DNA of 64,000 nucleotides, taken from contig CBDHCY010000005.1 in the NCBI GenBank assembly GCA_965261485.1, positions 333,813-397,812 of the forward strand, given 5' to 3'. Shown here piece after piece: positions 7,361-22,655 of this stretch. A model generated the notes under the pieces. That model did not search any database. It saw only the letters and a list, made by a program, of their open reading frames with translations, and was not told where the DNA came from. The first letter of the stretch is position 1. Every line of letters starts with the position of its first letter. A program made the position numbers and the translations under genes. The stretch is from Leptospiria bacterium. GTDB lineage: Bacteria; Spirochaetota; Leptospiria; Turneriellales; CBDBES01.

Positions 7361-9685
7361 TTATAGAAAAGTACCAATTGACTGGCCTAATTGAACAATT
7401 TGTTTTTCTTTTAGGTCGTGCCATTTTGCTTGTCCTGCTTCAATAAATAATATTACAGTGGAGCCCATCTCAAAACGAGCCAACTCTTCTCCCTTTTTTA
7501 TTGGTAAAGCCGTTTCATATTTATGCTCCTTGGCTGAACGGACCCAATTATTAGTATTTACAGTAGTATTATAAGCTAATTTGATATTACCAACATTAGT
7601 AGCAGCGATTTTGCTTAGGGCAATTAAGCCAAATTCTGTTTGGATGTATGTGGTCAAACGTTCATTTTTTGAAAATAAATTTGTAATTAAATTCACAGCA
7701 AATTCGTTGACGGGTAATAATCTGCCGGGAGAGTAAGAATGAGCGATAATCTCACCTGTTACAGGGGAATGAATTTTATGGTAGTCGACGGGGGCCAAAT
7801 AGATTGTCATCCATATTCCCTCTTTAAATTTTGCATGTAATTTGTGATTACTTAATATTTTTTTTACTTCAAGATGAATCCCTTTAACTTGAATCATTGT
7901 TCCTTTAGAAATTTTACCAAAATTTAAAATTCTGCCATCTACTGGAGATACAATAATCTGTTGTCGGTGGTCAATCTTTCTAATTCCTTTTTTTAAATTT
8001 CTGATAAAGAATGCATTGAGAGATGAATATTGTTTTAATGAAAATTCTGCCTCTTCAAGTTTTATTGAATATGTTTTAGAAAAAACTTTTAGAATAGGTA
8101 GCATTAAAAATTTAGGAAATTTAAATCTAGCAAAATAGCCAAAAAGTCTTGATATTAAATTTTTAGGTATGATATATAAAAAAATTAAATAAAATTGAGA
8201 GAATAGATCAAAACGCTTATGGTGTTGATATAAAAAATCTTTTGTTTCTTTAACAACAACATAGGACAGTAGAGATATGGCCACTAAATTTGGAAGTGCC
8301 ATAAAACCATTTGCTATATCTGAAAAAAGCCATATTAGGCTTATCTCAGAAGTATATGCTCCCATAAATGTGAGTGATATCCATAAAATACGGTAGTATA
8401 AGGAATATTTTTGTAAACCTAGATAGATGAGTGCTCGGTCAGAATAATAAAACCAACCAATTATTGTTGAAATTGAAAAGAAAATAATTCCCCATGTTAC
8501 GATAGTTTTTCCAAATCCTCCTAAATAGTGATGAAAAACGGAAGAAACCAAAACATCTTGTATATTTTCTGCCTGAGTTCCCCAGTGATTAATGATTCCT
8601 GACCAAACAGATGGAAATTCTGTTAAAATACTGGGTAAAGTAGAAGTCATTTCTTTTGCAATTGGCAAACTTTTTGAAGTAACAGCTTTACTTAATATCG
8701 CGCTAGGGTTTTCTTCTATTCCAATCAATATAACAAAGGCTGTTAGAGTGCAAATAATAATTGTGTCAATAAAAGGGCCTAACATAGAGACGAGACCCTG
8801 CTGACTCGGGTGAGTTGTTTTTGCTGCGGCGGCGGCAATGGGAGCTGAGCCTAGACCTGCTTCGTTAGAGAAAAGTCCTCTTTTGATGCCTATCATTATA
8901 GAAGTTTGCCAAAAGCCAATTGAAGAACCTATGATTGCTGGTAAGGGTTCGAAGGCAAATTTTAAAATCATTGAAAATATTGTAGAAATACTTTCTATAT
9001 TTTGACCAATAATATATAACGAACCCATGAGGTAAAAAATCCCCATGAAGGGTACAATAATACTGGTAACTCTACCAATTCGACGAATACCTCCTAATAT
9101 TACTAAGCCTGTAACAGTGGAAATCAGTAGAGCACTTAACCCTCGTGGGATTTTCCAATGGGTTGAATAAAGTTCCCCAGCTACTGCATTTGCCTGAGTC
9201 ATATTTCCGATGCCCAATGCTGCTATTAATGTGCTCAAAGCGAAAAAGATGGCTAACCACTTCATGTGCAAGCCTTTTTCGATATAATACATGGGGCCTC
9301 CTGAAAATCCGAAAGGTGTTGATTCCCTATATTTTACAGCGAGGAAACATTCACTATACTTCGTAGCCATTCCTAAGAGAGCTGTTATCCACATCCAAAA
9401 AACAGAGCCTGGGCCTCCAATTAAAATGGCACCGGCAACACCGACAATATTACCAATACCAATAGTCGCACTCAAGGAAGTTGTGAGTGTCTGAAAATAG
9501 GAAATATCTCCTTCTATTTTTTTATTTTTGTTTGATTTAAAACCGCAAGTAATGCGAAAGGCCAAATAGAGATAACGAATTTGTATGAAAGCCAAACGGA
9601 GGGTCATAAAAGCACCAAGACCAATGAGAATAAATACAGTGGGCTTGCCCCAAATATAGCTTGATATCTCTTTTAAAATTGTCAT
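7361..9685 (-). CDS. fusion protein: alanine/glycine:cation symporter (AGCS family) N-terminal part plus phosphatidylserine decarboxylase C-terminal part
   Basis: Residues about 1-485 are a polytopic AGCS-like transporter (GIGNIVGVAGAI, GLFSNEAGLGSAPIAAAAAKT). Residues about 490-774 carry PSD motifs (VSPVDGRI, YLAPVDYHKIHSPVTGE, and FEMGSTVILF containing the GST self-cleavage site). One uninterrupted ORF. Confidence 0.75.
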   Translation of the reverse strand: MTILKEISSYIWGKPTVFILIGLGAFMTLRLAFIQIRYLYLAFRITCGFKSNKNKKIEGDISYFQTLTTSLSATIGIGNIVGVAGAILIGGPGSVFWMWITALLGMATKYSECFLAVKYRESTPFGFSGGPMYYIEKGLHMKWLAIFFALSTLIAALGIGNMTQANAVAGELYSTHWKIPRGLSALLISTVTGLVILGGIRRIGRVTSIIVPFMGIFYLMGSLYIIGQNIESISTIFSMILKFAFEPLPAIIGSSIGFWQTSIMIGIKRGLFSNEAGLGSAPIAAAAAKTTHPSQQGLVSMLGPFIDTIIICTLTAFVILIGIEENPSAILSKAVTSKSLPIAKEMTSTLPSILTEFPSVWSGIINHWGTQAENIQDVLVSSVFHHYLGGFGKTIVTWGIIFFSISTIIGWFYYSDRALIYLGLQKYSLYYRILWISLTFMGAYTSEISLIWLFSDIANGFMALPNLVAISLLSYVVVKETKDFLYQHHKRFDLFSQFYLIFLYIIPKNLISRLFGYFARFKFPKFLMLPILKVFSKTYSIKLEEAEFSLKQYSSLNAFFIRNLKKGIRKIDHRQQIIVSPVDGRILNFGKISKGTMIQVKGIHLEVKKILSNHKLHAKFKEGIWMTIYLAPVDYHKIHSPVTGEIIAHSYSPGRLLPVNEFAVNLITNLFSKNERLTTYIQTEFGLIALSKIAATNVGNIKLAYNTTVNTNNWVRSAKEHKYETALPIKKGEELARFEMGSTVILFIEAGQAKWHDLKEKQIVQLGQSIGTFL

Positions 9686-9931
9686 AATTTTAGTATAATA
9701 TTGTCATAATTATGATCGTGATCTTATTAAATCGCTTTTTTCTAGTTTTCACAAAATTTTTTATTTTGACATAAATAAATTTTAGATTTAGTTAGTGAAG
9801 GGAAAAGATAATGTTTATTAACTATCTTTGATGGGAGTGTTATTTGGCATAGTATAAAAAAATTGAATTCTATTTGTAAGTGTTAATAACAATTTGGCTA
9901 TTCTTTGAATTATTTTAATGAATTTATACTG

Positions 9932-10372
9932 TCAAATTGGACGTTCGAAGGCATGGTTTAAAATAATTGTGCATAAATTTAGAAAAAGAATATAAACAAA
10001 AAAGCATAATAGGTAATTTTGGAGAGATTTAGATTTTTTTTTGATTCCAAGTTTTTCAATAGAAAATTTTTCAATTTGCGAAAATAAGATCGCCCAACCA
10101 ATCCAAAAAAATGATGAAACGATTAAATTTGACATATCATTTGAACTAAAGCGGTTTGTGAATATTTTATAACAAGCATGGATATAATTTGGTTCTAAAA
10201 AATAATTAAAACTAATACCTACGAGAGATACAGCAACAAAATAGTAAAGTATATTTGGCCAGGTGCTTTTCCATATTTTTTCTTTAAGTAAATATGAATA
10301 AGTAAAATAGATAAAAAGTAAACTTAGCCCATAAAATAAATTAGTACGTACCCATTCAAAGAAAAAAAACAT
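9932..10372 (-). CDS. hypothetical integral membrane protein
   Basis: 146 aa with four or more hydrophobic segments. No recognisable family. Confidence 0.3.
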   Translation of the reverse strand: MFFFFEWVRTNLFYGLSLLFIYFTYSYLLKEKIWKSTWPNILYYFVAVSLVGISFNYFLEPNYIHACYKIFTNRFSSNDMSNLIVSSFFWIGWAILFSQIEKFSIEKLGIKKKSKSLQNYLLCFFVYILFLNLCTIILNHAFERPI

Positions 10373-10489
10373 AACTCAATGACTATAATCTAGTAATTAT
10401 AGTGAAAATATAGTCAAAATGTCAAACTTAATTAAAAAATAATATCTTAAATATTTGAGATCATTTTAGAAATCTCCGATATTCTAAGA

Positions 10490-11629
10490 ATGTGGTTGAC
10501 CCGTTCTATTCTTTTATTGTCTGGTTTATTTAGTCTTTATGTCAGTATGACTTGCACTTTAGTGCCTAATCTTTTGGGCATACCATTTTCAAAGAATAAT
10601 AGTTTTAGAAAGAGTAGTCTTGTTAGTATTGGCAGTGAAGAATTTCAGAAAAGAAAAGAGAATACTAAACTAAAACTTGATAATGGCATAGGCTCTAATA
10701 GTGGTGTTGGAAGTACCTTTGATTTAGAAGCTGTTTCTTCAAATTTTTTGGGTGCAATGGCTTTTATAGATATTCCTACCCCTGTTTATACGCGGGGTAT
10801 TTATATTACCAATTCAACCGCTCAATCTGAAGAGAGAATAAAATATTTTTTAGAAAAAGCCAATTTTTATGAACTTAATACTTTTGTAATTGATGTTCAA
10901 AAGCAAATGGTCTCTAAAGAGATTATTGGTATGCTTAAAACTTCTAAAATATTCCCGGTGGCTCGTGTTGTAGTTATGGAAGGAGGTTTGCGACAAAAGG
11001 AATTTTCAAATAAACGTGTTCATACAATACTCAAATTAATTGAAGATGCCTCCGCTCAAGGTTTTTCTGAGGTACAACTTGATTATATTCGCTATGCAGA
11101 TATTGATAGGTTATTAGGTTTGCCTTTATCTTATAAATATAATATTATTCGTTCTCTTCTCTCAAAAGCAAAAAATATTGCTGAGCAAAATAATATTCAT
11201 CTTTCTGCTGATCTATTTGGTCGCATTACTTTAAATCAAAATGATCAGATTGGTCAAAAATTAGAAATTTTCGGAAAATATATGCGAACAATCTATCCGA
11301 TGTTATATCCCTCCCACTATACTAATGACAATAATCGCATATCGAAACCTTATATGACGGTAAAAGAGGGCATCGAAAAAAGTAAAGAACGTTTACCTGA
11401 GCATAGAATTGTCGCTTATATTCAAGGTTTTAATATAAAAGTGAAGCCAAGTCGATTAAATTTTGTTAACTATATAAAAGCACAAATTAAGGCCTGTGAT
11501 GATAGTTTTTCTGATGGTTGGGTTATCTGGAACGCGCGCAATGAGTATGGGCCGTCTTTTCAGGCGATTAAACAGTATAGGGAAGAAAAAACAGCACTTA
11601 AAAATCAAACTTTTAGTAATCGTCTGTGA
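10490..11629 (+). CDS. putative glycoside-hydrolase-like TIM-barrel protein (DUF4015-like), secreted or lipoprotein
   Basis: Signal peptide; FVIDVQK...VVVMEG...EVQLDYIRYAD pattern as recalled from the putative glycosyl hydrolase domain family. Assignment is tentative. Confidence 0.35.
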   Translation: MWLTRSILLLSGLFSLYVSMTCTLVPNLLGIPFSKNNSFRKSSLVSIGSEEFQKRKENTKLKLDNGIGSNSGVGSTFDLEAVSSNFLGAMAFIDIPTPVYTRGIYITNSTAQSEERIKYFLEKANFYELNTFVIDVQKQMVSKEIIGMLKTSKIFPVARVVVMEGGLRQKEFSNKRVHTILKLIEDASAQGFSEVQLDYIRYADIDRLLGLPLSYKYNIIRSLLSKAKNIAEQNNIHLSADLFGRITLNQNDQIGQKLEIFGKYMRTIYPMLYPSHYTNDNNRISKPYMTVKEGIEKSKERLPEHRIVAYIQGFNIKVKPSRLNFVNYIKAQIKACDDSFSDGWVIWNARNEYGPSFQAIKQYREEKTALKNQTFSNRL

Positions 11630-12318
11630 ATTTTTCTAAATTGGGCACCTTATTTTCGGTGGCTCTTCCTATTGGTAATGTAGAAGATATTAGTTTGCGT
11701 GCGAAGAAGGTTCTTGAATATTCTGATTTTCTAGCTTGTGAAGATACTCGTAGAGCTGGAATATCTTTAAGTATGATGAATATTAAAAGACATGGTAAAC
11801 TGCTTTCTTATCATTCATATAATGAGGCTCATTCGGCTGCTGGCCTAATTAAGCTACTTTTAGATGGTAACAATATTTCTTTGATTACTGATTCAGGCTC
11901 TCCTCGTATTTCTGACCCTGGGTATCATATAATCAAGCAATGTTGGGAGCATCAGATCAAGGTTGTTCCTATTCCGGGGAGTTCTGCTTTGAGTTCACTT
12001 TTAAGTATTTGCCCATTTCGTGTAGAGCCTCTTTTATTTTTAGGGTTTATATCACCCAAATCAGGAAGACGTTGCAAAATATTTGAAAAATATAATAATT
12101 TTTTGGGTTCAGTATGTTTTTTTGAGTCAGTTCATCGAATTCAGCAATTTTTGAATGATATTTATAATACTTGGGGAGATCATACCATTTTAATTGGTCG
12201 TGAACTTACCAAAAAACACGAGGAGATATTTTTAGGGAGGGTGGCAGAGGCACTCAATTGGTCGAATAAAAAGAAAGGTGAATTTATATTTTTAATAGAT
12301 AAAACAGAAACGCCCTGA
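11626..12318 (+). CDS. rsmI: 16S rRNA (cytidine1402-2'-O)-methyltransferase
   Basis: ALPIGNVEDISLRAKKVL...LACEDTRR, PGSSAL, and ESVHRI...TILIGRELTKKHEE are typical RsmI motifs. GTG start overlaps the upstream stop. Confidence 0.85.
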   Translation: MNFSKLGTLFSVALPIGNVEDISLRAKKVLEYSDFLACEDTRRAGISLSMMNIKRHGKLLSYHSYNEAHSAAGLIKLLLDGNNISLITDSGSPRISDPGYHIIKQCWEHQIKVVPIPGSSALSSLLSICPFRVEPLLFLGFISPKSGRRCKIFEKYNNFLGSVCFFESVHRIQQFLNDIYNTWGDHTILIGRELTKKHEEIFLGRVAEALNWSNKKKGEFIFLIDKTETP

Positions 12319-12364
12319 ATATAGTTTTGTGAGCATAGGTTGGCAATGTAGCCATTAAAAAAGG

Positions 12365-12391
12365 TTGACAATATCTGCAGTATATTAGAGT
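12365..12391 (+). promoter_or_regulatory. candidate sigma70-type promoter of GLUG paralogue 1
   Basis: TTGACA at 12365-12370 and TAGAGT at 12386-12391 (15-nt spacer, suboptimal). The same arrangement is retained in all three duplicated units. Confidence 0.3.
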
Positions 12392-12430
12392 TTTGTGCGT
12401 GCTCCGTCTGAAGGGTAGTTAAGGGGTCGA

Positions 12431-15013
12431 ATGCATTTTTGGAGAGGTAATCAGATGAAACAAATGAAACAAATGAAAAAAAATAAATATTTAAGCTTTG
12501 GGTGCTTTATTTTTAACTATTTTTCCAAAATTAATTTTAGTAGTAGAGTATGCATTTTAGTTATTTTAAGCTCTCTATTTTTACCCTTTTGTGCCGGAGG
12601 CTCAGAAGATCCCGGTACTAAAGTAGTAGATCCCGGTACTAAAGTAGTAGACCCCGGTACTAAAGTCGTAGACCCCCCACCGGGGGGGCCAGAGACAATC
12701 ACCAAAGTAGGCGTTCAATCATATTTTTGCACGAATGGTGTCAAAAAAGATCCTGTGAATCTAGCAGTAGCTAGTGCTTCCACCCCTGATAAACAGGGCT
12801 GTGCGAGCTGTGATCGGCACTATCGTGTAGCAAGTGGCTCCTTCTTAGATGATGGTAGCACTTGTGTGGCTCGTACTTGTGCGGTAGAGGGAGAAGAGCC
12901 ATGTTCAACTTGTTATGCCGGCTCTGTGCGTAGTGGTCATACATCCGACGGGTTGCCTACCTCAGTTCCTTCTGAGAGTACGTGTGTTCAAGTTGATAGT
13001 GATAATAATAAACTTATTGATATAACAACGCTCACTCAATTACATAATATGAGGTATAATCTTGCGGGAACCTCTTATAAAACAGATGCATCCACTGTGG
13101 CTGGGGAGTGCGGCACCTATGGCGATGCCGACGGTATCTATGAGATTGCTTCAGATAGCTGTATAGGCTACGAGCTTATGAATGACTTAAACTTTGATTC
13201 TGATGATCAGGATGATGATAGTACTTACACGCCTTCTACAACCGGAGGAGTAACAACTTATATCCTAGATAATGATGATAATGCTGCACCTTATTTTGTA
13301 GTAACAGGGGTAACAGATAATGGCGTCACTAGTTACAGTGGTGGTTGGGATCCAATTGATGATTTTGCAACTACCTTTAATGGTAATGATAATACTATTA
13401 CTGGTCTTGCTATTAGTCGTGGTGATTCTGATGATACTCGTATTGGTATGTTTGGTACTATAACAGCTGATGCAATGATCCATAATATTAATTTAAATTA
13501 CAATCTGTCTGAATATACTGGCTCAGCAACAGATGATGTTCAAATTGGTGGTTTGGTGGGGTTTAGTTTGGGCACTATTACTACCAGTTCGGTCATTGAT
13601 GGGAAGGTTAGGAGTCCTGCTCTTGCAGGTGGTTTAGTGGGTTTCCAACAGGGCAAAAAAATTAATGCCTCTATTGGTATTGCTACTGTTAGTGGTAGTA
13701 TTGCCGGTGGTTTAGTAGGTCAGTCGATGGATAGCCAAATTGCGACTAGTTATGCTACTGGTGATGTTAACGGCGGAACCGGTGATAATAAATTAGGTGG
13801 TTTAGTGGGTCAGTCCATTAATAGCAAAATTAGAATTAGTTATGCTACTGGTGCTGTAATAGGCGGGGCTGGTGCTGATCACTTAGGTGGTTTAGTGGGC
13901 GAATCTGAAAATAGTCAAATCATCACTAGTTATGCTACTGGTGCTGTAACAGGCGGGGCTGGTGCTGATCGCTTAGGTGGTTTAGTGGGCGAGTCTATAA
14001 ATAGCCAAATTATCGCTAGCCATGCTACTATTGGTGCTATAACTAGTGAGGCTGGTGCTAATTACTTAGGTGGTTTAGTGGGTAATTTTGAAGTTCTAAA
14101 TAAGGCGAATAATAATAAGAAGGGTATTATTGTCGCTAGTTATGCTACTGGTGCTGTAGCTGGCGGAATCGGTACTGATGGGTTAGGTGGTCTGGTTGGT
14201 CAAATTTGGATTACTGGTGATACTACTGTTAGTAATCCTCGTCCTGTTAGTGAAGTTATTGTCACTGTTATCGCTAGTTATGCCACTGGTAATTTAATGG
14301 GTGGTGATGCGAGCGATAACTTAGGCGGCCTAGTGGGTTATGTTGATGACAATTCTAGTGAAAAGGTTACTATTACTGCTAGTTATGCTACTGGTGCTAT
14401 AACTGGTGAAGGTGGTCAAGATACGTTAGGTGGTCTGGTAGGTTACTTTGGGGATAAGTCTTCTGTTGTCCTTACGAAGGCTCACATTACTGCGAGTTAT
14501 GCTAATAATGTAGAGCTTACAGATGATACTGATCCGCTCCAACATCTGGGCTCGTTAGTAGGTAATTTAAGTAATGGAAACGTTCAGATTACTGATAGCT
14601 ATGGTTTTGCCACTCTTGAAGGAGGTACTAATCCTCAAATTGCTACATTTGCAAATGAAGTTGGGGATTTAGTAGCTGTAGGTGTCACTCCAAGTGGTGT
14701 CAGTGCTGCAGCTGATTTAACCCTTACAACGGCTATTACTACCGTTACTGATGCTTCAGATACAAATGCTATTAGTAGGAAAGATACTACATTAGGGGAA
14801 ATATGGAATAAGGCTAAACTGAATACTCTTGGTGCTTGGTTCTTTGAGACGGGTGTCGCTCCTACACTCAAATTTAATGATTACGATGGTCCTGTTGTTG
14901 GTACTACTGGCGATGTTTATAGTTGCTCCCCCTCTGACAATTACTTCACGATCACCATAGGGAGCAACACTATCGACACCATGCGTTCTTGTGGTGGTTC
15001 GATAACACAGTAG
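12431..15013 (+). CDS. GLUG-repeat surface lipoprotein, tandem paralogue 1 (probable true start is ATG 12455, after GGAGAGG)
   Basis: Signal peptide ending LFLPFC-AGGS (loose lipobox). Cys-rich N-domain, then a IDITTLTQLHNMRYNLAG core. At least 12 repeats of about 28-31 aa of the form GGLVG....I..SYATG.V.G....D.LGGLVG, which I recall as the GLUG motif family. Confidence 0.7.
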   Translation: MHFWRGNQMKQMKQMKKNKYLSFGCFIFNYFSKINFSSRVCILVILSSLFLPFCAGGSEDPGTKVVDPGTKVVDPGTKVVDPPPGGPETITKVGVQSYFCTNGVKKDPVNLAVASASTPDKQGCASCDRHYRVASGSFLDDGSTCVARTCAVEGEEPCSTCYAGSVRSGHTSDGLPTSVPSESTCVQVDSDNNKLIDITTLTQLHNMRYNLAGTSYKTDASTVAGECGTYGDADGIYEIASDSCIGYELMNDLNFDSDDQDDDSTYTPSTTGGVTTYILDNDDNAAPYFVVTGVTDNGVTSYSGGWDPIDDFATTFNGNDNTITGLAISRGDSDDTRIGMFGTITADAMIHNINLNYNLSEYTGSATDDVQIGGLVGFSLGTITTSSVIDGKVRSPALAGGLVGFQQGKKINASIGIATVSGSIAGGLVGQSMDSQIATSYATGDVNGGTGDNKLGGLVGQSINSKIRISYATGAVIGGAGADHLGGLVGESENSQIITSYATGAVTGGAGADRLGGLVGESINSQIIASHATIGAITSEAGANYLGGLVGNFEVLNKANNNKKGIIVASYATGAVAGGIGTDGLGGLVGQIWITGDTTVSNPRPVSEVIVTVIASYATGNLMGGDASDNLGGLVGYVDDNSSEKVTITASYATGAITGEGGQDTLGGLVGYFGDKSSVVLTKAHITASYANNVELTDDTDPLQHLGSLVGNLSNGNVQITDSYGFATLEGGTNPQIATFANEVGDLVAVGVTPSGVSAAADLTLTTAITTVTDASDTNAISRKDTTLGEIWNKAKLNTLGAWFFETGVAPTLKFNDYDGPVVGTTGDVYSCSPSDNYFTITIGSNTIDTMRSCGGSITQ
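12608..12670 (+). repeat. 3 x 21-bp in-frame tandem repeat (DPGTKVV) directly after the lipobox Cys
   Basis: GATCCCGGTACTAAAGTAGTA occurs three times (third unit has 2 substitutions). Paralogue 2 has a single unit. Confidence 0.9.
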
Positions 15014-15025
15014 CGTAGTAAAATA

Positions 15026-15060
15026 AAATTTATCTCTTGCTTGCAGTGAGAGATAAATTT
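15026..15060 (+). terminator. hairpin downstream of paralogue 1
   Basis: AAATTTATCTCT (15026-15037) pairs perfectly with AGAGATAAATTT (15049-15060), with an 11-nt loop. No clean T-run follows, so terminator function is inferred from position and conservation after all three genes. Confidence 0.5.
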
Positions 15061-15105
15061 GAATTAAACTTTTGAATGGTTGAACTATTTGAAAATCTAA
15101 GCTCC

Positions 15106-15196
15106 TTTTTAAGGAGGGCGATTAGAGGCATTTAATTGGTCGAATAAAAAGAAAGGTGAATTTATATTTTAAATAGATGAAACAGAAACGCCCTGA
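15106..15196 (+). repeat. duplicated fragment of the rsmI 3' end (non-functional gene fragment), copy 1
   Basis: Aligns by eye to rsmI 12228-12318, including the ...NWSNKKKGEFIF... coding sequence and the stop, with a few substitutions and indels. Confidence 0.8.
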
Positions 15197-15261
15197 ATAT
15201 AGTTTTGTGACTATAGGTTGGCAATATAGCCATTGAAAAATATTAATATTTCTAAAAAAGA

Positions 15262-15288
15262 TTGACAATCTCTACAGTAAATTAGGAT
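15262..15288 (+). promoter_or_regulatory. candidate promoter of GLUG paralogue 2
   Basis: TTGACA at 15262-15267 and TAGGAT at 15283-15288 (15-nt spacer). Homologous position to 12365-12391. Confidence 0.3.
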
Positions 15289-15349
15289 TGGATGTGTGCT
15301 CCGTCTGAAAGATAGTGCGGGGTAGAATAAATTTTGAAGAGGTAATCAA

Positions 15350-18166
15350 ATGAAACAAATAAAAAACAATAAATATTTAAGCTTTGGGTACTTTATTTTT
15401 AACTATTTTTCCAAAATTAATTTTAGTAGCAGAGTATGCATTTTAGTTATTTTAAGCTCTCTATTTTTACCCTTTTGTGCCGGAGGCTCAGAAGATCCCG
15501 GTACTAAAGTCGTAGACCCCCCCGTAGTAGCCCCCCCCACCGGTGAACCAGAGACAATCACCAAAGTAGGCGTTCAATCATATTTTTGCACGAATGGTGT
15601 CAAAAAAGATCCTGTGAATCTAGCAGTAGCTAGTGCTTCCAGCCCTGATAAACAGGGCTGTCAGAGTTGTAATGCACGCTATCGTATAGCAAGTGGCTCC
15701 TTCTCAGATGATGGTAGCTCTTGTGTGCGTCGTACTTGTGCTGATAATGGTGATGATGCTGTTGCTCCTGCTGCTGTTACTGCTCTTGCCGGATCTCCTT
15801 TGGCATGTCCTCGAGTGACTAGTTCGCCTAATACCTACGATGGCTGTTATTTCGACTATATGCGTAGTGGTCATGAACCCGCATCCGAGGGAATGCAGGG
15901 TAAACCCACTGAAGAACTTTATAATAGTGAGTGTGTTCAGGTTGATAGTGATAATGATAAACTTATTGATATAACAACACTCACTCAATTATATAATATG
16001 AGGCATAACACTTTTGGAGACTTTTATCACGTAGCTACCTCAACTGCAGCTGGAGCGTGCGGCAGCTACGGTGGTGCCGAGGGTGATGTATATACTCGTG
16101 CAGCTTGTGCTGGCTATGAGCTTATGAATAACCTAAGCTTTGATAAAAATAAGAATGGTATTACTTACGATAGCAATGGTCTAGATCCAGGTGATGATGC
16201 CGTACCTTATTTTGTAGTAGATTCTACTGATTCTAGTAATATTATTGGTGGTTGGGAGCCAATAGTTAATTTTGCAAGTACCTTTGATGGTAATGGTAAT
16301 ACTATTACTGGCCTTGCTATTCGTAAGACTAGGACTGGTACTGGTACTGGTACTGTCAGTATTGGTATGTTTGGTTCTATAAGACATGCACCAGCACGTT
16401 CTGCAGTGATTCGTGATATTAATTTAGTTGATAATCTAGCTGAATATTATTCAGCCCCAAGTACAGCTCCAAGTGGTCGTATTCATGTTGGCGGTTTGGT
16501 AGGTACTAGTCTTGAGAACGTTATTACTGGAAGTAATAGTGTGGGCACTATTACCGGAAGTTCTACCAGTGGAGAGGCTAAGGGTCCTTTTGCTACAGGT
16601 GGTTTAGTAGGCTTCCAAGAGGACTTAAAAATTGAAAGTAGTCATGCTACTGGTTCTGTGAGTTATGTTAGTAGTTCTGCTAATTTCTTTGGAGGTGGTT
16701 TAGTAGGGCGTTCTAAGAATGGCAAAATTATCACTAGTTATGCTTCTGGTGCTGTAACAGGCGGGGCTGGTGATGATCGCTTAGGCGGTTTAGTGGGCGA
16801 GTCTCTAAATGGCCAAATTATCGATAGTTCTGCTACTGGTACTGTAACTGTAACTGTAACAGGTGGGGCTGGTAGTGATTACTTAGGTGGTTTAGTAGGG
16901 CGTTCTAGGAATGGCGAAATTATCACTAGTTTTGCTACTGGTGCTGTAACAGGTGGGGCTGGTGATGATCTCTTAGGCGGTTTAGTGGGCGAGTCTAAGC
17001 TTAATAGCCAAATCATCACTAGTTATGCTACTGGTACTGTAAGAGGTGCGGCTGGTAATGATTACTTAGGTGGTTTAGTGGGCAAGTCTTCCAGTAGCCA
17101 AATTATCGATAGTTTTGCTTCTGGTGCTGTAACTGGTGGGGCTGATAATGATAAGTTAGGTGGTTTAGTGGGCGAGTCTCTAAATAGCCAAATCATCGCT
17201 AGTCATGCTACTAGTGATGTAACAAGCGAGGCTGGTGCTAATTACTTAGGTGGTTTAGTGGGTTATTTTAAAGTCGATCTAACGAAGAGTGGTACTATTG
17301 CCGCTAGTTATGCTATTGGTGCTGTAACTGGTGGAGCCAATATTGATCGTGCCGGTGGTCTGGTTGGTGATATTATAGCTCAACTTGATGGTATGGGGGG
17401 GAGTACTAATGGGGCTGTCACTGTTATCGCTAGTTATGCTACTGGTGCTGTAAGTGGTCTTGCTGACGATGATGTTTTAGGTGGTCTGATTGGTCGTATT
17501 GATAACACTACTATTCCTCCTGGTAATACAGGTCAAACTCATGGGGGGAGTTCAGTTGTCTTTACTGCCACTTATGCTACTGGTGCTGTAACTGGTGGTG
17601 CTGGTTCAGATAGCTTAGGTGGTCTGATAGGTATTTTAAATGGGGCTGCCATCATTGCGAGTTATGCTACTAACAGTGGGGGGCTTAATGCTGCTAGCGG
17701 TAGCAGGCAGTTTGTTGGTCGGTTAGTAGGTATTCCAGGTACTCCTCGGATTACTGAGAGTTATGGTTTTACGGTACCTACAGGTATTGATGCTGATGAG
17801 GCTAATGTAGGTATAGCACCAAATGGTATCGCTGCTGCAACTGGTTTAACCTCTGCTGGTTTAATCTCTGCTATGGTTGGTAATGCAGGTGATAAATGGG
17901 ATAAGGTTGTTGCATTTGTTCCCCCCGAGCAGGGGAGCAGTACGGGTACAGCCGCTATTCATACTTCTGGTGCTTGGTTCTTTGGGACGAGTGCCGCTCC
18001 TACACCCCAATTTAATGATTACGATGGTCTTGCTGCTGGTACTACTGGCACTATTTATAATTGCTCCGCTCCATCCACTCCAGCTATGAATTTTTTCGAG
18101 ATCAAGCTTCCAAATATCGATAAGATCACAACCACACGTTCTTGTGGTAGTTCGATAACGCAGTAG
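15350..18166 (+). CDS. GLUG-repeat surface lipoprotein, tandem paralogue 2
   Basis: The first ~105 residues are near-identical to paralogue 1 apart from the post-lipobox repeat/linker segment (signal peptide, LFLPFC lipobox, ETITKVGVQSYFCTNGVKKDPVNLAVASAS). It has a divergent Cys-rich region and more than 14 GGLVG/SYATGAVTGGAG repeats. SD GAAGAGG lies 7 nt before the ATG. Confidence 0.7.
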   Translation: MKQIKNNKYLSFGYFIFNYFSKINFSSRVCILVILSSLFLPFCAGGSEDPGTKVVDPPVVAPPTGEPETITKVGVQSYFCTNGVKKDPVNLAVASASSPDKQGCQSCNARYRIASGSFSDDGSSCVRRTCADNGDDAVAPAAVTALAGSPLACPRVTSSPNTYDGCYFDYMRSGHEPASEGMQGKPTEELYNSECVQVDSDNDKLIDITTLTQLYNMRHNTFGDFYHVATSTAAGACGSYGGAEGDVYTRAACAGYELMNNLSFDKNKNGITYDSNGLDPGDDAVPYFVVDSTDSSNIIGGWEPIVNFASTFDGNGNTITGLAIRKTRTGTGTGTVSIGMFGSIRHAPARSAVIRDINLVDNLAEYYSAPSTAPSGRIHVGGLVGTSLENVITGSNSVGTITGSSTSGEAKGPFATGGLVGFQEDLKIESSHATGSVSYVSSSANFFGGGLVGRSKNGKIITSYASGAVTGGAGDDRLGGLVGESLNGQIIDSSATGTVTVTVTGGAGSDYLGGLVGRSRNGEIITSFATGAVTGGAGDDLLGGLVGESKLNSQIITSYATGTVRGAAGNDYLGGLVGKSSSSQIIDSFASGAVTGGADNDKLGGLVGESLNSQIIASHATSDVTSEAGANYLGGLVGYFKVDLTKSGTIAASYAIGAVTGGANIDRAGGLVGDIIAQLDGMGGSTNGAVTVIASYATGAVSGLADDDVLGGLIGRIDNTTIPPGNTGQTHGGSSVVFTATYATGAVTGGAGSDSLGGLIGILNGAAIIASYATNSGGLNAASGSRQFVGRLVGIPGTPRITESYGFTVPTGIDADEANVGIAPNGIAAATGLTSAGLISAMVGNAGDKWDKVVAFVPPEQGSSTGTAAIHTSGAWFFGTSAAPTPQFNDYDGLAAGTTGTIYNCSAPSTPAMNFFEIKLPNIDKITTTRSCGSSITQ

Positions 18167-18184
18167 CGGTAGTTGTAAAATATA

Positions 18185-18220
18185 AAATTTATCTCTTGCT
18201 TTGCAGTGAGAGATAAATTT
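18185..18220 (+). terminator. hairpin downstream of paralogue 2
   Basis: AAATTTATCTCT (18185-18196) pairs with AGAGATAAATTT (18209-18220), with a 12-nt loop. Confidence 0.5.
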
Positions 18221-18264
18221 GAATAAATCTTTTGAGTGGTTGAACTATTTGAAATCTGAGCTAC

Positions 18265-18354
18265 TTTTTAGAAAGGGCGTCAGAGCCACTCAATTGATCG
18301 AATAAAAAGAAAGGCGAGTTTATGTTTTTAATAGATAGAACATAAACGCCTTGA
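18265..18354 (+). repeat. duplicated fragment of the rsmI 3' end, copy 2 (more diverged)
   Basis: ...CAGAGCCACTCAATTGATCGAATAAAAAGAAAGGCGAGTTTATG...AACGCCTTGA aligns to the last ~90 bp of rsmI. Confidence 0.7.
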
Positions 18355-18417
18355 ATATAGTCTTGTGAGCATAGTTCGGCAATGCAGCCATTAAAAAAGA
18401 TTGCCAGTATCTAAAGA

Positions 18418-18445
18418 TTGACAATATCTGCAATATAATTAGAGT
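18418..18445 (+). promoter_or_regulatory. candidate promoter of GLUG paralogue 3
   Basis: TTGACA at 18418-18423 and TAGAGT at 18440-18445 (16-nt spacer). Homologous to the other two units. Confidence 0.3.
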
Positions 18446-18509
18446 TGAGTGCGTACCTTAATTTGAAGGGCAGTATAGAGATAAGATATATTTTTGAAGA
18501 GGTAATCAA

Positions 18510-20795
18510 ATGAAGCAAATGAAAAACAATAAATATTTAAGCTTTGGGTGCTTTATTTTTAACTATTTTTCCAAGATTAATAGTAATTTTAATAGTAAAA
18601 TATGTATTTTAGTTATTTTAAGCTCTCTATTTTTACTTTTTTGTGGTGGAGGCTCCAAAGTAGCCGGCCGCAAAATAGTCAGCTCCGAAGTAGCCCATGA
18701 ACAATCATATGTTTGTACGAATGGTACCCCAAAAGAATCTATTACTTTACCAATAGGTATGGATCCCGTTGCTGATAAAAAGAGTTGCAATAGATGTGAT
18801 GTACACTATCGTGTAGCAAGTGGCCCAGAACTTACTGAGGTTGGTAGCACTTGTGTGACTCGTACTTGTGCGGTAGAGGGAGAAGAGCCATGTTCAACTT
18901 GTTATGCCGGTTTTGTGCGTAGTGGTCATACATCCGACGGTATGTCTACGTCAGTTCTTTCTGAGAGTACGTGTGTTCAGATTGATAGTGATAATGATAA
19001 ACTTATTGATATAACAACACTCACTCAATTACATAATATGAGGAATAATCTCGCTGGAACCTCTTATAAAACAGATGCATCCACTGTGGCTGGGGAGTGC
19101 GGTACCTATGGCGATGTCGAGGGTGAATATACTACAGCTTTAGGTAGCTGTATGGGCTATGAGCTTATGAATGACCTAAGCTTTGATACTGATACAGATG
19201 GTACTCACGACAGCGATGGTCTAGATACGGCTGATAAAAATTTAGTTTATTTTCCAGTAGGTTCTAATAAGGATGGTGGTTGGGAGCCAATAGTTGGTTT
19301 TGCAACTACCTTTAATGGTAATGGTAATACTATTACTGGCCTTGCTATTCGTCGTCCCAGTGCTCGTATTGGTATGTTTGGTAATATAACAACTGATGCA
19401 GTGATCCGTAATATTAATTTAGCTGATAATCTAGCTGAATATTATATCGTCTCAGGAAAAAATATACCTAACAGTGTTCATGTTGGCGGTTTGGTGGGTA
19501 ATAGTAAGGGCACTATTATTGGAAGTTCTACCAGTGGAAAGGCTAAGGGTCCTCTTATTACAGGTGGTTTAGTAGGCTTCCAAAAGTCCTTAAAAATTGA
19601 AAGCAGTCATGCTACTGGTACTGTGAGTTATATTAGTAGTTCTACCACTCCTACAACTAATTTCTCTGGAGGTGGTTTAGTAGGGCGTTGTAATGCTGGC
19701 AAAATTATCACTAGTTCTGCTACTGGTGCTGTAACAGGTGGGGATGGTAAGGATCTCTTAGGTGGTTTAGTAGGGCGTTTAGTTGAGAATGGCGAAATTA
19801 TCACTAGTTCTGCTACTGGTGCTGTAACAGGTGGGGATGGTAATGATCAGTTAGGTGGTTTAGTGGGCGAGTCTCTAAATAGCCAAATTATCACTAGTTC
19901 TGCTACTGGTGCTGTAACAGGTGGGGATGGTACTAATTACTTAGGTGGTTTAGTGGGTAATTTTAGGGTCGATCGTGATAAGAGTGGTATTATTGTCGCT
20001 AGTTATGCTACTGGTGCTGTAACAGGTGGAGCCGATGTTGATAATGCCGGTGGTCTTATAGGTCGTATTGAGACTCTGCGTACTGGAAGCGTGATTTTGG
20101 GAGGAGTTGCTTCTATTGTTACTGTTATAGCTAGTTCTGCTGCTGGTGCTATAATTGGTGATGCTAGTGACGATTTTTTAGGTGGTCTGGTTGGTAATGT
20201 TGATGGGGACTCTGGTAAGCGAGTTACTATTACTGCCAGTTATGCTACTGGTGATGTAACTGGTACTGGAAGTGGTGGTACTAATTCTGATGTTTTAGGT
20301 GGTCTGGTAGGTTTTTTAGGGGGATCTAGCAAAATTATTGCAAGTTATGCTAATAATAATAACCTTCTTCCTGGTGGCGGCGGTAATCAAGGTTTTGGTA
20401 GCTTAGTAGGTTCTGGTTCTGGAGCTGACCGGGTTATTGAGAGTTATGGTTTTTTTTCATTTAGTAGTGGTACACCAAATTTACTTGGTGGTACACCATC
20501 AAGTAGTATCACTACTGCAGCTGGTTTAATCTCTGCTACCTCTGGTAATGCAGGTGTCAAATGGAATCAGGTTACTCCCGCTACTGCTACTGAGCCTGCT
20601 ATTCATACTCTTGGTGCTTGGTTCTTTGAGACGGGTGTCGCTCCTAAACTCCAATTTAATGATTACGACGGTGGTGGCACTGTTTATAGTTGCTCCTCTT
20701 CTGGAAATTATTTTACGATCACCATAGGGGGCAACGATATCGAAACCACGCGTGTTTGTAGTACTGAAGATAATCCGAGTCTGATAACACAATAG
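18510..20795 (+). CDS. GLUG-repeat surface lipoprotein, tandem paralogue 3
   Basis: Signal peptide with LFLLFC-GGGS. The Cys-rich and LIDITTLTQLHNMRNNLAGTSYKTDASTVAGECGTYGD region is nearly identical to paralogue 1. GGLVG repeats are present, and the C-terminal LGAWFFETGVAP.L.FNDYDG is shared with paralogue 1. Confidence 0.7.
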   Translation: MKQMKNNKYLSFGCFIFNYFSKINSNFNSKICILVILSSLFLLFCGGGSKVAGRKIVSSEVAHEQSYVCTNGTPKESITLPIGMDPVADKKSCNRCDVHYRVASGPELTEVGSTCVTRTCAVEGEEPCSTCYAGFVRSGHTSDGMSTSVLSESTCVQIDSDNDKLIDITTLTQLHNMRNNLAGTSYKTDASTVAGECGTYGDVEGEYTTALGSCMGYELMNDLSFDTDTDGTHDSDGLDTADKNLVYFPVGSNKDGGWEPIVGFATTFNGNGNTITGLAIRRPSARIGMFGNITTDAVIRNINLADNLAEYYIVSGKNIPNSVHVGGLVGNSKGTIIGSSTSGKAKGPLITGGLVGFQKSLKIESSHATGTVSYISSSTTPTTNFSGGGLVGRCNAGKIITSSATGAVTGGDGKDLLGGLVGRLVENGEIITSSATGAVTGGDGNDQLGGLVGESLNSQIITSSATGAVTGGDGTNYLGGLVGNFRVDRDKSGIIVASYATGAVTGGADVDNAGGLIGRIETLRTGSVILGGVASIVTVIASSAAGAIIGDASDDFLGGLVGNVDGDSGKRVTITASYATGDVTGTGSGGTNSDVLGGLVGFLGGSSKIIASYANNNNLLPGGGGNQGFGSLVGSGSGADRVIESYGFFSFSSGTPNLLGGTPSSSITTAAGLISATSGNAGVKWNQVTPATATEPAIHTLGAWFFETGVAPKLQFNDYDGGGTVYSCSSSGNYFTITIGGNDIETTRVCSTEDNPSLITQ

Positions 20796-20810
20796 CGGTA
20801 GTAAAATATA

Positions 20811-20845
20811 AAATTTATCTATTGCTTGCAGTGATAGATAAATTT
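20811..20845 (+). terminator. hairpin downstream of paralogue 3
   Basis: AAATTTATCTAT (20811-20822) pairs with ATAGATAAATTT (20834-20845). Relative to the other two copies, a C:G pair is replaced by A:T on both arms. Confidence 0.5.
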
Positions 20846-21077
20846 GAATTAAGCATGTAATGACTGATAATTTTCATTATACTTTAAATTTAGATTATTT
20901 TTTGTAAATCAGTTAAATTATTCTTGCAAATATAGATCCACTCTTATAAGCTGGAGGTTGAGTGTGAATGTTTATAAAAATAATAAAAAGATAAATCTTA
21001 AATTGAAGTTTAATAATAGAACGAATTAATTTGAATTAAAACAGGTCCAGCTTTGTTATACTTCCAGTAAAATATAA

Positions 21078-22655
21078 TTGAAATTACATCCACCATTAAA
21101 ATCTCAAAAAAAAAGAGATCGCTTATATATTTTTGACACGACCCTTCGTGATGGTGAGCAATGCCCTGGAGCATCTATGAACGAAGAAGAGAAAATAGCG
21201 ATCGCTCATCAACTACTTAAATTAAAAATTAATATTATTGAAGCTGGTTTTCCAATTTCATCTCCAATTCAATTTAACGCGGTCAAAAAAATTTCTGAAG
21301 AGATTGAAGGTCCTATTATTACCGCTTTAGCAAGGGCCACTAAAGGTGATATTGAGTCGGCCTATCAGGCACTTAAATCAGCTAGAAAAAAAAGAATTCA
21401 TACATTTATTGCAACTAGTCCCATTCACATGAAACATAAATTAGGTAAAAAACCTGCTGAAATTTTAAAAATTGCTGTTGAATCTGTTAAAAGAGCAAAA
21501 AATTTAATTAATGATGTGGAGTTTTCGGCAGAAGATGCCACTCGTAGTGAATCTAATTTCTTAATAGAGATTATTGAAGCAACTATTCAGGCGGGTGCCA
21601 CAACAATTAACCTTCCGGATACTGTTGGTTACACAACTCCTGAAGAATATGGTCAACTTTTTAAAATGGTGAAAAAAAAAGTAACAAATATTAACTCTGC
21701 TGTTCTTTCAGCACATTGTCATAATGACTTAGGTCTTGCTGTAGCGAATTCATTGGCAGCTATTCAAAATGGAGCACGGCAAGTTGAATGTACTATTAAT
21801 GGAATTGGCGAAAGAGCTGGTAACACAGCAATGGAAGAAATTGTCATGGCCATTAAAACCCGCTCCCATAATTATCCAGTTGAAGTTGATATTGATACTG
21901 GTATGATTTATAAAACATCTAAAATGGTTGCTAAGTTTTCTGGCCTTATGGTACAACGAAATAAGGCGATTGTAGGTGGGAATGCTTTTGCTCATGAGTC
22001 AGGTATTCATCAAGACGGTATGTTGAAAAATCGCCTAACCTATGAAATAATGACTCCTAAATCGATTGGTCTCAACAAAAGTCAAATTATATTAGGTAGA
22101 CATTCTGGGCGTTCTGGCTTTAAAAGTCGAATTAAAGAATTTGGTTTTGATTTATCTATAAAACAATTTGAACGTATCTACGAACAATTTTTAGAATTGG
22201 CTGACCAAAAAAAAGAGGTCTTTGAAGAAGATATAATGGCACTTTTACATGAGAGTTCCCTACCTCCTGAGAAGAAAACCTATATTTTGTCTAAATTTGA
22301 TATATCTTCAAGCTCGCACGCTGAATCTAAAGCAAATGTTACTATCTATATTATGGGAGATGATAGCTCAAAAAAGGAGGAATCTTTAGCGACGGCGACA
22401 GGGAGTGGTCCTATCGCTGCTTTATTTTGTGCCTTAGAAAAGGCGAGTGGTACGCAAACTACCCTTGATGTATTTACTATTCTACCAACCTCCAGAGGTA
22501 AAGATTCTTTAGGCGAAACCAAGGTTGGCTTAAAGGTTGGAGAACAAGTTTTTTATGGTCGTGGAGCTTCTACAGATATTGTAGAAGCCTCAGCCAAGGC
22601 TTTTATTGATGCTTTAAATCGATCGGCTGTAGCTACAAAAATATTGAAAAAGTAG
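21078..22655 (+). CDS. leuA: 2-isopropylmalate synthase
   Basis: IFDTTLRDGEQ, HCHNDLGLAVANSLAA, and AHESGIHQDG motifs. Has a C-terminal LeuA regulatory domain and a TTG start. Confidence 0.9.
   Translation: MKLHPPLKSQKKRDRLYIFDTTLRDGEQCPGASMNEEEKIAIAHQLLKLKINIIEAGFPISSPIQFNAVKKISEEIEGPIITALARATKGDIESAYQALKSARKKRIHTFIATSPIHMKHKLGKKPAEILKIAVESVKRAKNLINDVEFSAEDATRSESNFLIEIIEATIQAGATTINLPDTVGYTTPEEYGQLFKMVKKKVTNINSAVLSAHCHNDLGLAVANSLAAIQNGARQVECTINGIGERAGNTAMEEIVMAIKTRSHNYPVEVDIDTGMIYKTSKMVAKFSGLMVQRNKAIVGGNAFAHESGIHQDGMLKNRLTYEIMTPKSIGLNKSQIILGRHSGRSGFKSRIKEFGFDLSIKQFERIYEQFLELADQKKEVFEEDIMALLHESSLPPEKKTYILSKFDISSSSHAESKANVTIYIMGDDSSKKEESLATATGSGPIAALFCALEKASGTQTTLDVFTILPTSRGKDSLGETKVGLKVGEQVFYGRGASTDIVEASAKAFIDALNRSAVATKILKK

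Follow-up and report, generated by a model that had tools for sequence, protein, structure and literature searches.

A diverged tandem array of three predicted GLUG-motif lipoprotein genes with its repeat boundary inside rsmI in an uncultured spirochaete

A 64,000 nt stretch of a Leptospiria bacterium assembly (GCA_965261485.1, contig CBDHCY010000005.1, positions 333,813–397,812; below, the window, numbered from its first base) carries three paralogous genes, W1, W2 and W3, enclosed by rsmI and leuA (21078–22655), with their three open reading frames (ORFs) on the same strand. Each gene belongs to a self-contained unit that comprises a promoter-like TTGACA, a Shine–Dalgarno (SD) sequence, a predicted signal peptide with a lipobox cysteine, a GLUG beta-helix body and a terminator-like hairpin. 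It is very probable that the three are an old tandem array of transcription units, formed in situ between rsmI and leuA, which diverged, later exchanged sequence and underwent fast diversification at the cell surface. The features of the array are listed in Table 1.

The rsmI tail and the direction of duplication

The units start at 12229, 15106 and 18265 and form direct repeats, head to tail on one strand, at a spacing of 2.6–3.2 kb (repeat finder and alignment). In a four-way alignment the homology begins at a run of TTTTTAG at each of these positions, and ends about 8 bp beyond the hairpin that follows W3. The rsmI tail together with the promoter region (12229–12376) recurs at 15107–15254 (83% identity) and 18265–18412 (87%), and the 90 bp tail by itself matches the real rsmI at 82/90 positions (91%) before W2 and at 78/90 (87%) before W3. 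With up to 3 mismatches allowed, a 39 nt core of the tail has exactly three occurrences in the window and none in 100 shuffled sequences. The first-pass annotation of this DNA, made from the sequence without database searches, had described the recurrence of the rsmI end and promoter ahead of W2 and W3, and the two segments concerned (15106–15196 and 18265–18354) are indeed homologous to the rsmI 3′ end by alignment.

The tail encodes the C-terminus of RsmI (...EALNWSNKKKGEFIFLIDKTETP*) and closes the rsmI reading frame. Residues W212, K216, G218, E219 and F220, all of them encoded by the tail, are invariant in an alignment of nine RsmI orthologues (48–98% identity), and the RsmI of the window has the TP_methylase domain (PF00590), the conserved C-terminal KKGEF motif and an intact ORF. 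At the three nearest orthologue loci outside the species (L009–L011; 74, 71 and 68% amino acid identity) no GLUG gene is present downstream of rsmI, and these loci accordingly supplied no ancestral single-copy state. Both junction copies of the tail translate with in-frame stops, and copy 1 is additionally frameshifted by a 1 bp insertion. Per 25 variable sites in the unit's upstream portion, the real copy has only 2 private changes, as against 10–11 private to W2 or W3. The tail is thus native to rsmI, and the junction copies are its dead derivatives. Since the invariant residues are found in orthologues that lack an array, and since the junction copies carry stops and an indel, the array arose by duplication in situ and separate import is excluded. 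This agrees with the earlier proposal that tandem expansion took place in situ and that a boundary of the unit lies within rsmI, as does the identical junction layout of a second strain.

Functional conservation of the pseudo-rsmI tails need not be assumed, the divergence of pseudo-tails and promoter regions (13–24%) being about as large as that at synonymous sites (pS 0.24–0.31). Scans of genome and metagenome contigs with a conserved tail DNA pattern and with RsmI gave only distant RsmI matches (29–38%) or none, and no extra strains.

Comparison with a related strain

The sole comparator strain is L008, a 34.7 kb ENA metagenome contig labelled 2x. Its gene order is that of the window (Na/Ala symporter, DUF4015, rsmI to leuA-ilvB), and the flanking genes are closely related, with a synonymous divergence (dS) of 0.050, a nonsynonymous divergence (dN) of 0.006 and a ratio of the two (omega) of 0.12 over 1686 codons. 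A copy-number comparison between related strains had been suggested in the first-pass annotation; L008 carries two GLUG units where the window has three, in the same junction layout. Both L008 copies are frameshifted, copy A (9711–12115) once and copy B (12457–14786) with at least four frame changes, while the flanking genes on the contig are mostly intact. These broken copies represent either real pseudogenisation or assembly error within repeats.

The L008 junction consists of the hairpin, the ~45 bp and a pseudo-rsmI tail, and has 96% identity with the W2–W3 junction and 87% with the W1–W2 junction. The same junction in both strains indicates that the founding duplication predates their split, and copy number has either changed since then or differs through allele exchange.

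Mismatches between the window and L008 occur about once per 100 bp up to 12186 (11931, 12080, 12186). Between 12222 and 20869 they are dense, and none follows before 21070. The hypervariable zone is the repeat array itself, to within ~10–20 bp at each end. Compared with L008 copy A, the W copies show 55–59% amino acid identity, with dS 0.33–0.41, dN 0.33–0.40 and omega ~1; dN in the array is about 60 times the flank value, and the divergence from L008 equals that among the W paralogues. Conversion from the four further paralogues of the window genome (P0022, P0027, P0029 and P0063) was rejected as the origin of the L008 alleles, since the amino acid identities reach at most ~40–56%.

Age, selection and mosaicism

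Amino acid identity among W1–W3 is 45–52%. Paralogue dS (~0.28–0.39) far exceeds that of the flanking genes of the two strains (0.05), so that a recent triplication was rejected and the array is old. Omega among the paralogues is 0.80–1.04 overall, reaching ~2 in segments of the mature protein and falling to 0.2–0.35 in the signal peptide. The maintenance of intact ORFs of 2.3–2.8 kb in a genome of ~35% G+C argues against pure neutrality in the window strain, and the frameshifted copies of L008 show that loss is tolerated.

A three-way alignment of W1–W3 (2470 ungapped columns, 824 variable sites) has a mosaic structure. W1 and W2 agree over a block at ~12421–12870, W1 and W3 over blocks at ~12883–13125 and 14938–14983, and W2 and W3 over blocks at ~13538–14183 and 14705–14816. 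Runs of consecutive agreeing sites reach 27 and 17 for W1 and W2, and 19 and 15 for W1 and W3, compared with a maximum of 11–13 in 5000 permutations (p < 0.0002). Sliding identity peaks at 97% (W1–W2), 96% (W1–W3) and 91% (W2–W3), above a background of 60–70%. Runs of this significance point to gene conversion among the paralogues. By the same permutation test, phylogenetic incongruence along the ORF is significant, and the arrangement differs by strain, with three versus two copies and scrambled indels in the promoter region. For example, an insertion of ~25 bp in that region is common to window unit 2 and L008 unit 1, and is absent from window unit 1 and L008 unit 2.

The real rsmI tails of the two strains differ at 8 sites, and 7 of the 8 states also occur in pseudo-tails. 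One difference (CAGAAAC versus CATAAAC) creates an earlier TAA, giving an RsmI of 227 amino acids in L008 and 230 in the window. These shared states indicate that conversion probably also reaches the real rsmI 3′ end.

Promoters, hairpins and junction segment

All three leaders retain their own TTGACA and SD, as the first-pass annotation had read them. Each ATG is preceded by GAGAGG/GAAGAGGTAATCA, in the common layout GAGAGG/GAAGAGG-TAATCA-N-ATG. A consensus-like promoter spacing was found by promoter scan only in W3 (TTGACA-16-TAGAGT), while in W1 and W2 a −10-like TAGAGT/TAGGAT can be read 15 nt from the −35. All three copies may plausibly be expressed. The W3 promoter contains a 17 bp duplication of the −35 region (18396–18429).

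On the minus strand, a promoter-like TTGCCA/TTGCCG-17-TATATT lies just past the rsmI stop (12346..12318, 15224..15196 and 18382..18354) and is kept in all three window units and both L008 units. Transcripts started there would run antisense to the rsmI tail and pseudo-tails; in unit 2 only, the element is followed by a minus-strand terminator-like hairpin at 15116–15102. This element is probably a case of chance conservation within the repeat.

A hairpin with a 16 bp stem, folding at −14 to −18 kcal/mol, follows each of the three genes. The first-pass annotation had noted a hairpin with a 12 bp stem, and ~45 bp after it, recurring behind paralogues 1 and 2; the recurrence holds, with 15041–15094 (hairpin and following bases) matching 18201–18254 at 94%, whereas folding lengthens the stem. 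At 20826–20879 only the hairpin part is found, and behind W3 nothing is retained beyond the hairpin and GAATTAA. Relative to hairpins 1 and 2 and to those of L008, hairpin 3 carries a double change from C:G to A:T (20821/20835). This compensatory change supports a functional stem, probably a terminator. Hairpin 3 has no classical T-run, however, and was not called by the terminator scan.

The novel join, i.e., the 45 bp segment fused to a pseudo-rsmI tail, is present at both internal junctions. Searches for the source of the 45 bp segment by blastn-short against the window and L008–L011 returned only chance 9–12-mers. As the segment is missing after W3 and has no detectable source, a simple duplication model is incomplete: the segment either entered as filler when the founding join formed or is native sequence that was later replaced downstream of W3.

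Encoded proteins

W1, W2 and W3 match the GLUG motif family PF07581 with 58.6, 82.7 and 43.7 bits, respectively (gathering cut-off 20.5). No other domain was found in them by Pfam search, including no metalloprotease or other catalytic domain, and NCBIfam has no model for them. Their N-termini have a K-rich N-region and a hydrophobic stretch (VCILVILSSLFLPF), followed by C-AGG in W1 and W2 (...LFLPF-C-AGG) or by LFLLF-C-GGG in W3, and read as lipoprotein signal peptides with a lipobox cysteine. The start of W1 had been placed at 12431 in the first-pass annotation; homology with W2 and W3 and the database gene call (852 amino acids) make 12455 most likely instead.

The family profile matches the N-terminal GLUG domain of streptococcal IgA1 proteases (E 2e-12). 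An AlphaFold2 model of W3 shows a regular beta-solenoid over residues ~160–650, with a predicted local distance difference test score (pLDDT) mostly above 90, preceded by a Cys-rich, low-confidence N-terminal region of ~155 residues. With this model, the best Foldseek match is 3n6z (the Bacteroides GLUG protein BACOVA_03286; E 8e-4), and the next matches are IgA1 protease N-domains (probability 0.8–1.0) and generic right-handed beta-helices. A surface-exposed binding or adhesive role for W1–W3 may be proposed from these resemblances. A full-text literature search on GLUG gave no relevant match.

Internal 90 bp (30 amino acid) GLUG repeats of high identity number about 4 in W1, 6 in W2 and 3 in W3. 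Near its 5′ end, W1 also contains tandem repeats of 9 bp (3 copies) and 21 bp (3.3 copies). The former, ATGAAACAA repeated three times (12455–12482), gives W1 three in-frame start codons; the latter (12607–12676) encodes DPGTKVV in the linker of W1, and W2 has one copy of it. The small tandem repeats of the W1 5′ end and the W3 promoter may tune linker length or expression.

Proposed history and alternative explanations

As read from the anatomy of the locus, the array would have been founded by an illegitimate join that created a second, head-to-tail copy of a segment of ~2.9 kb. This segment would have begun 90 bp ahead of the rsmI stop and extended ~45 bp beyond the terminator, and its duplication would have left a dead rsmI tail at the junction and the real rsmI intact. 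The ends of this join, rsmI codon ~202 and the point ~45 bp past the terminator, have no mutual homology, so the first event was illegitimate and not a homologous unequal crossing-over. Unequal crossing-over, to which the first-pass annotation had attributed the expansion, may account for later changes in copy number but not for the founding join. In a second step, homologous exchange between units would have altered copy number, to three here and two in the sister strain, and gene conversion would have moved patches between copies, the real rsmI 3′ end included. The strain comparison and the mosaic statistics establish that this step occurred, and its exact events we infer. As a third step, the comparisons show that the array evolves far faster than its surroundings (omega ~1, versus 0.12 in the flanks), yielding a strain-specific repertoire of predicted surface beta-helix lipoproteins. 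The most likely cause is selection, diversifying or relaxed, on proteins that are exposed at the surface and probably bind ligands or act as adhesins.

Several observations weigh against this history or limit it. The lone comparator has 2x coverage and both of its copies are frameshifted, so its array may be mis-assembled or error-laden. An omega near 1 is compatible with relaxed constraint no less than with diversifying selection, and alignments rich in repeats inflate divergence estimates. The 45 bp segment is not found after W3 in either strain, where a continuation of the unit end would predict it. The promoter scan called only the W3 promoter, and overall counts of promoters and terminators in the scans do not exceed shuffled expectation; promoter activity, terminator function, lipoprotein status and surface exposure are all predictions from the sequence. 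Lastly, the 5′ end of W2 is W1-like, and its sequence becomes W3-like towards the 3′ end. A W2 formed as the hybrid of a single unequal crossover from two to three copies would be W3-like at the 5′ end and W1-like at the 3′ end, the opposite polarity, and this origin was rejected; several conversion events are required.

It is conceivable, though less likely than not, that the array is a dedicated diversification locus, which reshuffles and resizes a strain-specific repertoire of surface beta-helix lipoproteins using unit ends and internal repeats as handles. The upstream handles would be the pseudo-rsmI tail, promoter and signal peptide, and the downstream ones the C-terminal ~100 codons and the hairpin, with the internal 90 bp GLUG repeats serving likewise. 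If so, the 3′ end of rsmI, a housekeeping gene of the essential type, would be rewritten as a side effect (230 versus 227 amino acids).

The hypervariability could instead stem mainly from allelic replacement between strains, whole or partial arrays being imported by homologous recombination through the conserved flanks from an old pool of balanced alleles, with conversion inside the array minor. The depth of divergence favours such an old pool: the L008 copies differ from every W gene as much as the W genes differ among themselves, their dS is ~7–8 times that of the flanks, none of the remaining paralogues in the window genome resembles them closely, and local mutation alone is unlikely to produce this depth. 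Imports, however, are expected to end at arbitrary points, whereas the divergent zone starts within ~7 bp of the unit boundary in rsmI and ends ~20 bp past the last homology, a coincidence with repeat boundaries that favours repeat-driven processes. Intragenomic exchange is also demonstrated by the mosaics within one genome and by the states common to real and pseudo-tails. As the main source of variation, allelic replacement is therefore doubtful but a serious possibility; intra-array exchange and allele import are not mutually exclusive, and both may act. Programmed antigenic variation of the vls, tprK or msp2 type, in which one expressed copy is rewritten from neighbouring donor cassettes, would be in keeping with lipoproteins in a spirochaete, with mosaic paralogues whose tracts are significant by permutation, with omega ~1 and with conserved unit ends usable as recombination handles. 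It is nevertheless improbable. All three genes are full-length ORFs with their own TTGACA, SD, signal peptide and terminator, and promoterless or truncated cassettes are lacking; the conversion tracts are 87–97% identical and not identical, as expected of old events and not of ongoing switching, and both L008 copies are frameshifted.

The direction of events could also be reversed, with an imported or mobile cassette that already contained the 90 bp inserting into rsmI and supplying its present C-terminus. Conversion from pseudo-tail into real tail does seem to occur, the L008 RsmI ending 3 amino acids earlier at a TAA of the pseudo-tail type, but the tail residues (EAL.W...KKGEF..L), invariant positions included, align with RsmI orthologues of 48–74% identity at loci without GLUG genes, and it is the junction copies that have stops and an indel. 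We regard this reversal as very improbable. Hardly any credence can be given to the proposal that three homologous genes were acquired separately side by side, or that mis-assembly turned a single gene into the array. Across the array (12500–20500) G+C is 0.37–0.47, above that of the flanks (0.25–0.38), which would speak for separate acquisition, but the Gly-rich GGT-type codons of the repeats account for this and for the strong positive GC skew (up to +0.38). The pseudo-rsmI tails and the common 45 bp segment are derivable only from duplication at this site, and copies with 45–52% amino acid identity and different repeat numbers cannot stem from reads of one gene that were collapsed or expanded.

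Comparison with known systems

The closest analogue among described systems is the lpl tandem lipoprotein cluster of the nuSa-alpha island of Staphylococcus aureus. Recombination between lpl paralogues shuffles parts of ORFs, arrangement varies among strains, phylogenies are incongruent along a single ORF, and intergenic sequence co-evolves with the ends of the ORFs next to it (Tsuru & Kobayashi 2008, PMC2568036). Both systems have tandem lipoprotein paralogues, copy number or arrangement that varies by strain, and recombination between paralogues. The proteins themselves are unrelated, lpl proteins not being GLUG beta-helices, and the conserved parts differ: lpl genes have a central recombination region and variable ends, whereas here the unit ends and internal 90 bp repeats are conserved and the remaining body is variable. 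Unlike in lpl, the junction here retains part of a housekeeping gene, by which the founding event can be dated and localised.

In the duplication–amplification model (Roth and Andersson literature), an illegitimate founding join is followed by RecA-dependent unequal exchange, and classical amplifications are young, near-identical and unstable. The array described here resembles them in that a novel join is common to all internal junctions and in the copy numbers of three versus two that later exchange predicts. It differs from them in being old (dS ~0.3 between units) and diverged, with intact ORFs maintained. Among spirochaetes, the tpr genes of Treponema pallidum and the partial duplication of ligA/ligB in Leptospira are surface paralogues shaped by gene conversion. 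They share with W1–W3 a (here predicted) location at the outer surface, partial or tandem duplication and mosaic conversion tracts, but are unrelated in sequence, and the present array, in an uncultured host, gives no evidence of donor cassettes or an expression site. By profile and structure match, W1–W3 have a beta-helical GLUG domain like those of the streptococcal IgA1 proteases (PDB 6xja, 7uvl) and Bacteroides BACOVA_03286 (PDB 3n6z). Unlike IgA1 proteases, they have no detected catalytic domain, a putative N-terminal lipid anchor in place of LPXTG, and a Cys-rich N-terminal region modelled at low confidence.

The array is thus a new example of a known evolutionary pattern, the fast-evolving bacterial surface-protein array, and represents no new mechanism or kind of element. 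The dead rsmI tails are an unusually clean molecular fossil, recording the place and direction of the expansion and the exact limit of the fast-evolving zone, and the locus offers a specific instance in which conversion between paralogues has extended into a housekeeping gene. The GLUG beta-helix lipoproteins are a probable variable surface repertoire of an uncultured lineage, and are candidates for attachment to hosts or particles and for strain typing.

Table 1. Features of the array and its borders (window coordinates).
Feature	Position	Strand	Details and evidence
rsmI, 16S rRNA C1402 2′-O-methyltransferase	11626..12318	+	230 aa, intact; PF00590 E 4.5e-17, named orthologues, alignment
Native rsmI 3′ tail	12229..12318	+	Last 29 codons and stop; left end of repeat unit 1, source of the duplicated fragment
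W1 promoter/leader	12319..12454	+	TTGACA 12365–12370; SD GAGAGG upstream of ATG 12455
W1, GLUG-motif beta-helix lipoprotein (predicted), paralogue 1	12455..15013 (open from 12431)	+	852 aa; PF07581 E 4e-16
Terminator-like hairpin 1	15026..15060	+	16 bp stem; −16.7 kcal/mol, z −3.4
Post-hairpin junction segment (~45 bp), copy 1	15061..15105	+	
Pseudo-rsmI tail 1	15106..15196	+	82/90 match to real tail; 1 bp insertion, in-frame stops
W2 promoter/leader	15197..15349	+	TTGACA 15262–15267; SD GAAGAGG; ~25 bp insertion
W2, GLUG-motif lipoprotein (predicted), paralogue 2	15350..18166	+	938 aa; PF07581 E 8.5e-24
Terminator-like hairpin 2	18185..18220	+	−17.7 kcal/mol, z −3.7
Post-hairpin junction segment, copy 2	18221..18264	+	96% identity to the sole L008 junction
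Pseudo-rsmI tail 2	18265..18354	+	78/90 match to real tail; in-frame stops
W3 promoter/leader	18355..18509	+	TTGACA (18418–18423)-16-TAGAGT; SD GAAGAGG; 17 bp tandem duplication of −35 region 18396–18429
W3, GLUG-motif lipoprotein (predicted), paralogue 3	18510..20795	+	761 aa; PF07581 E 2.5e-11
Terminator-like hairpin 3	20811..20845	+	Compensatory C:G to A:T change at 20821/20835
Right edge of array	20846..20869	+	Paralogue homology ends ~20851; last strain-to-strain mismatch cluster ends 20869

Host, relatives and other features of the window

The nearest named relatives of the RsmI are annotated as 'Leptospiraceae bacterium' and 'Spirochaetia bacterium' (~48% identity), and related contigs carry FlaA and LIC10012_N genes. 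By these affinities the host appears to be an uncultured, Leptospirales-like spirochaete with a small genome (2.13 Mb); database entries place all three W proteins on a single contig of that size. The window contains a 16S rRNA gene (31061–32592) and a 5S rRNA gene (42233–42349), ~10 kb apart with protein genes between them, and no 23S rRNA gene; this spacing indicates that the rRNA genes are unlinked, as in Leptospira.

A related circular genome of 1.92 Mb (L023), from the same sample as L008, carries a tandem pair of the GLUG lipoprotein family (10001–12055 and 12701–14872) at another locus, which follows a class-I tRNA synthetase gene. Patches of the two copies are 98–99% identical in nucleotide sequence, the upstream and downstream flanks are duplicated, and the called ORF of the second copy lacks the signal-peptide region. 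This independent pair shows that tandem duplication followed by conversion is recurrent for the family in this clade.

More distant GLUG lipoprotein relatives are found in the window at 34429–36414 and 39372–41390 (+), with 27–33% amino acid identity by tblastn, one of them with a sub-threshold PF07581 match. A YhgA-like transposase ORF (PF04754; 37733–38782, +) lies between them. Together, the two relatives may form another part of the family, one that is older and dispersed. Upstream of rsmI, an ORF of 774 amino acids (7361–9685, −) reads as an unusual fusion of an N-terminal Na+/alanine symporter with a C-terminal phosphatidylserine decarboxylase; its L008 counterpart is called as 561 amino acids, with both Pfam families.

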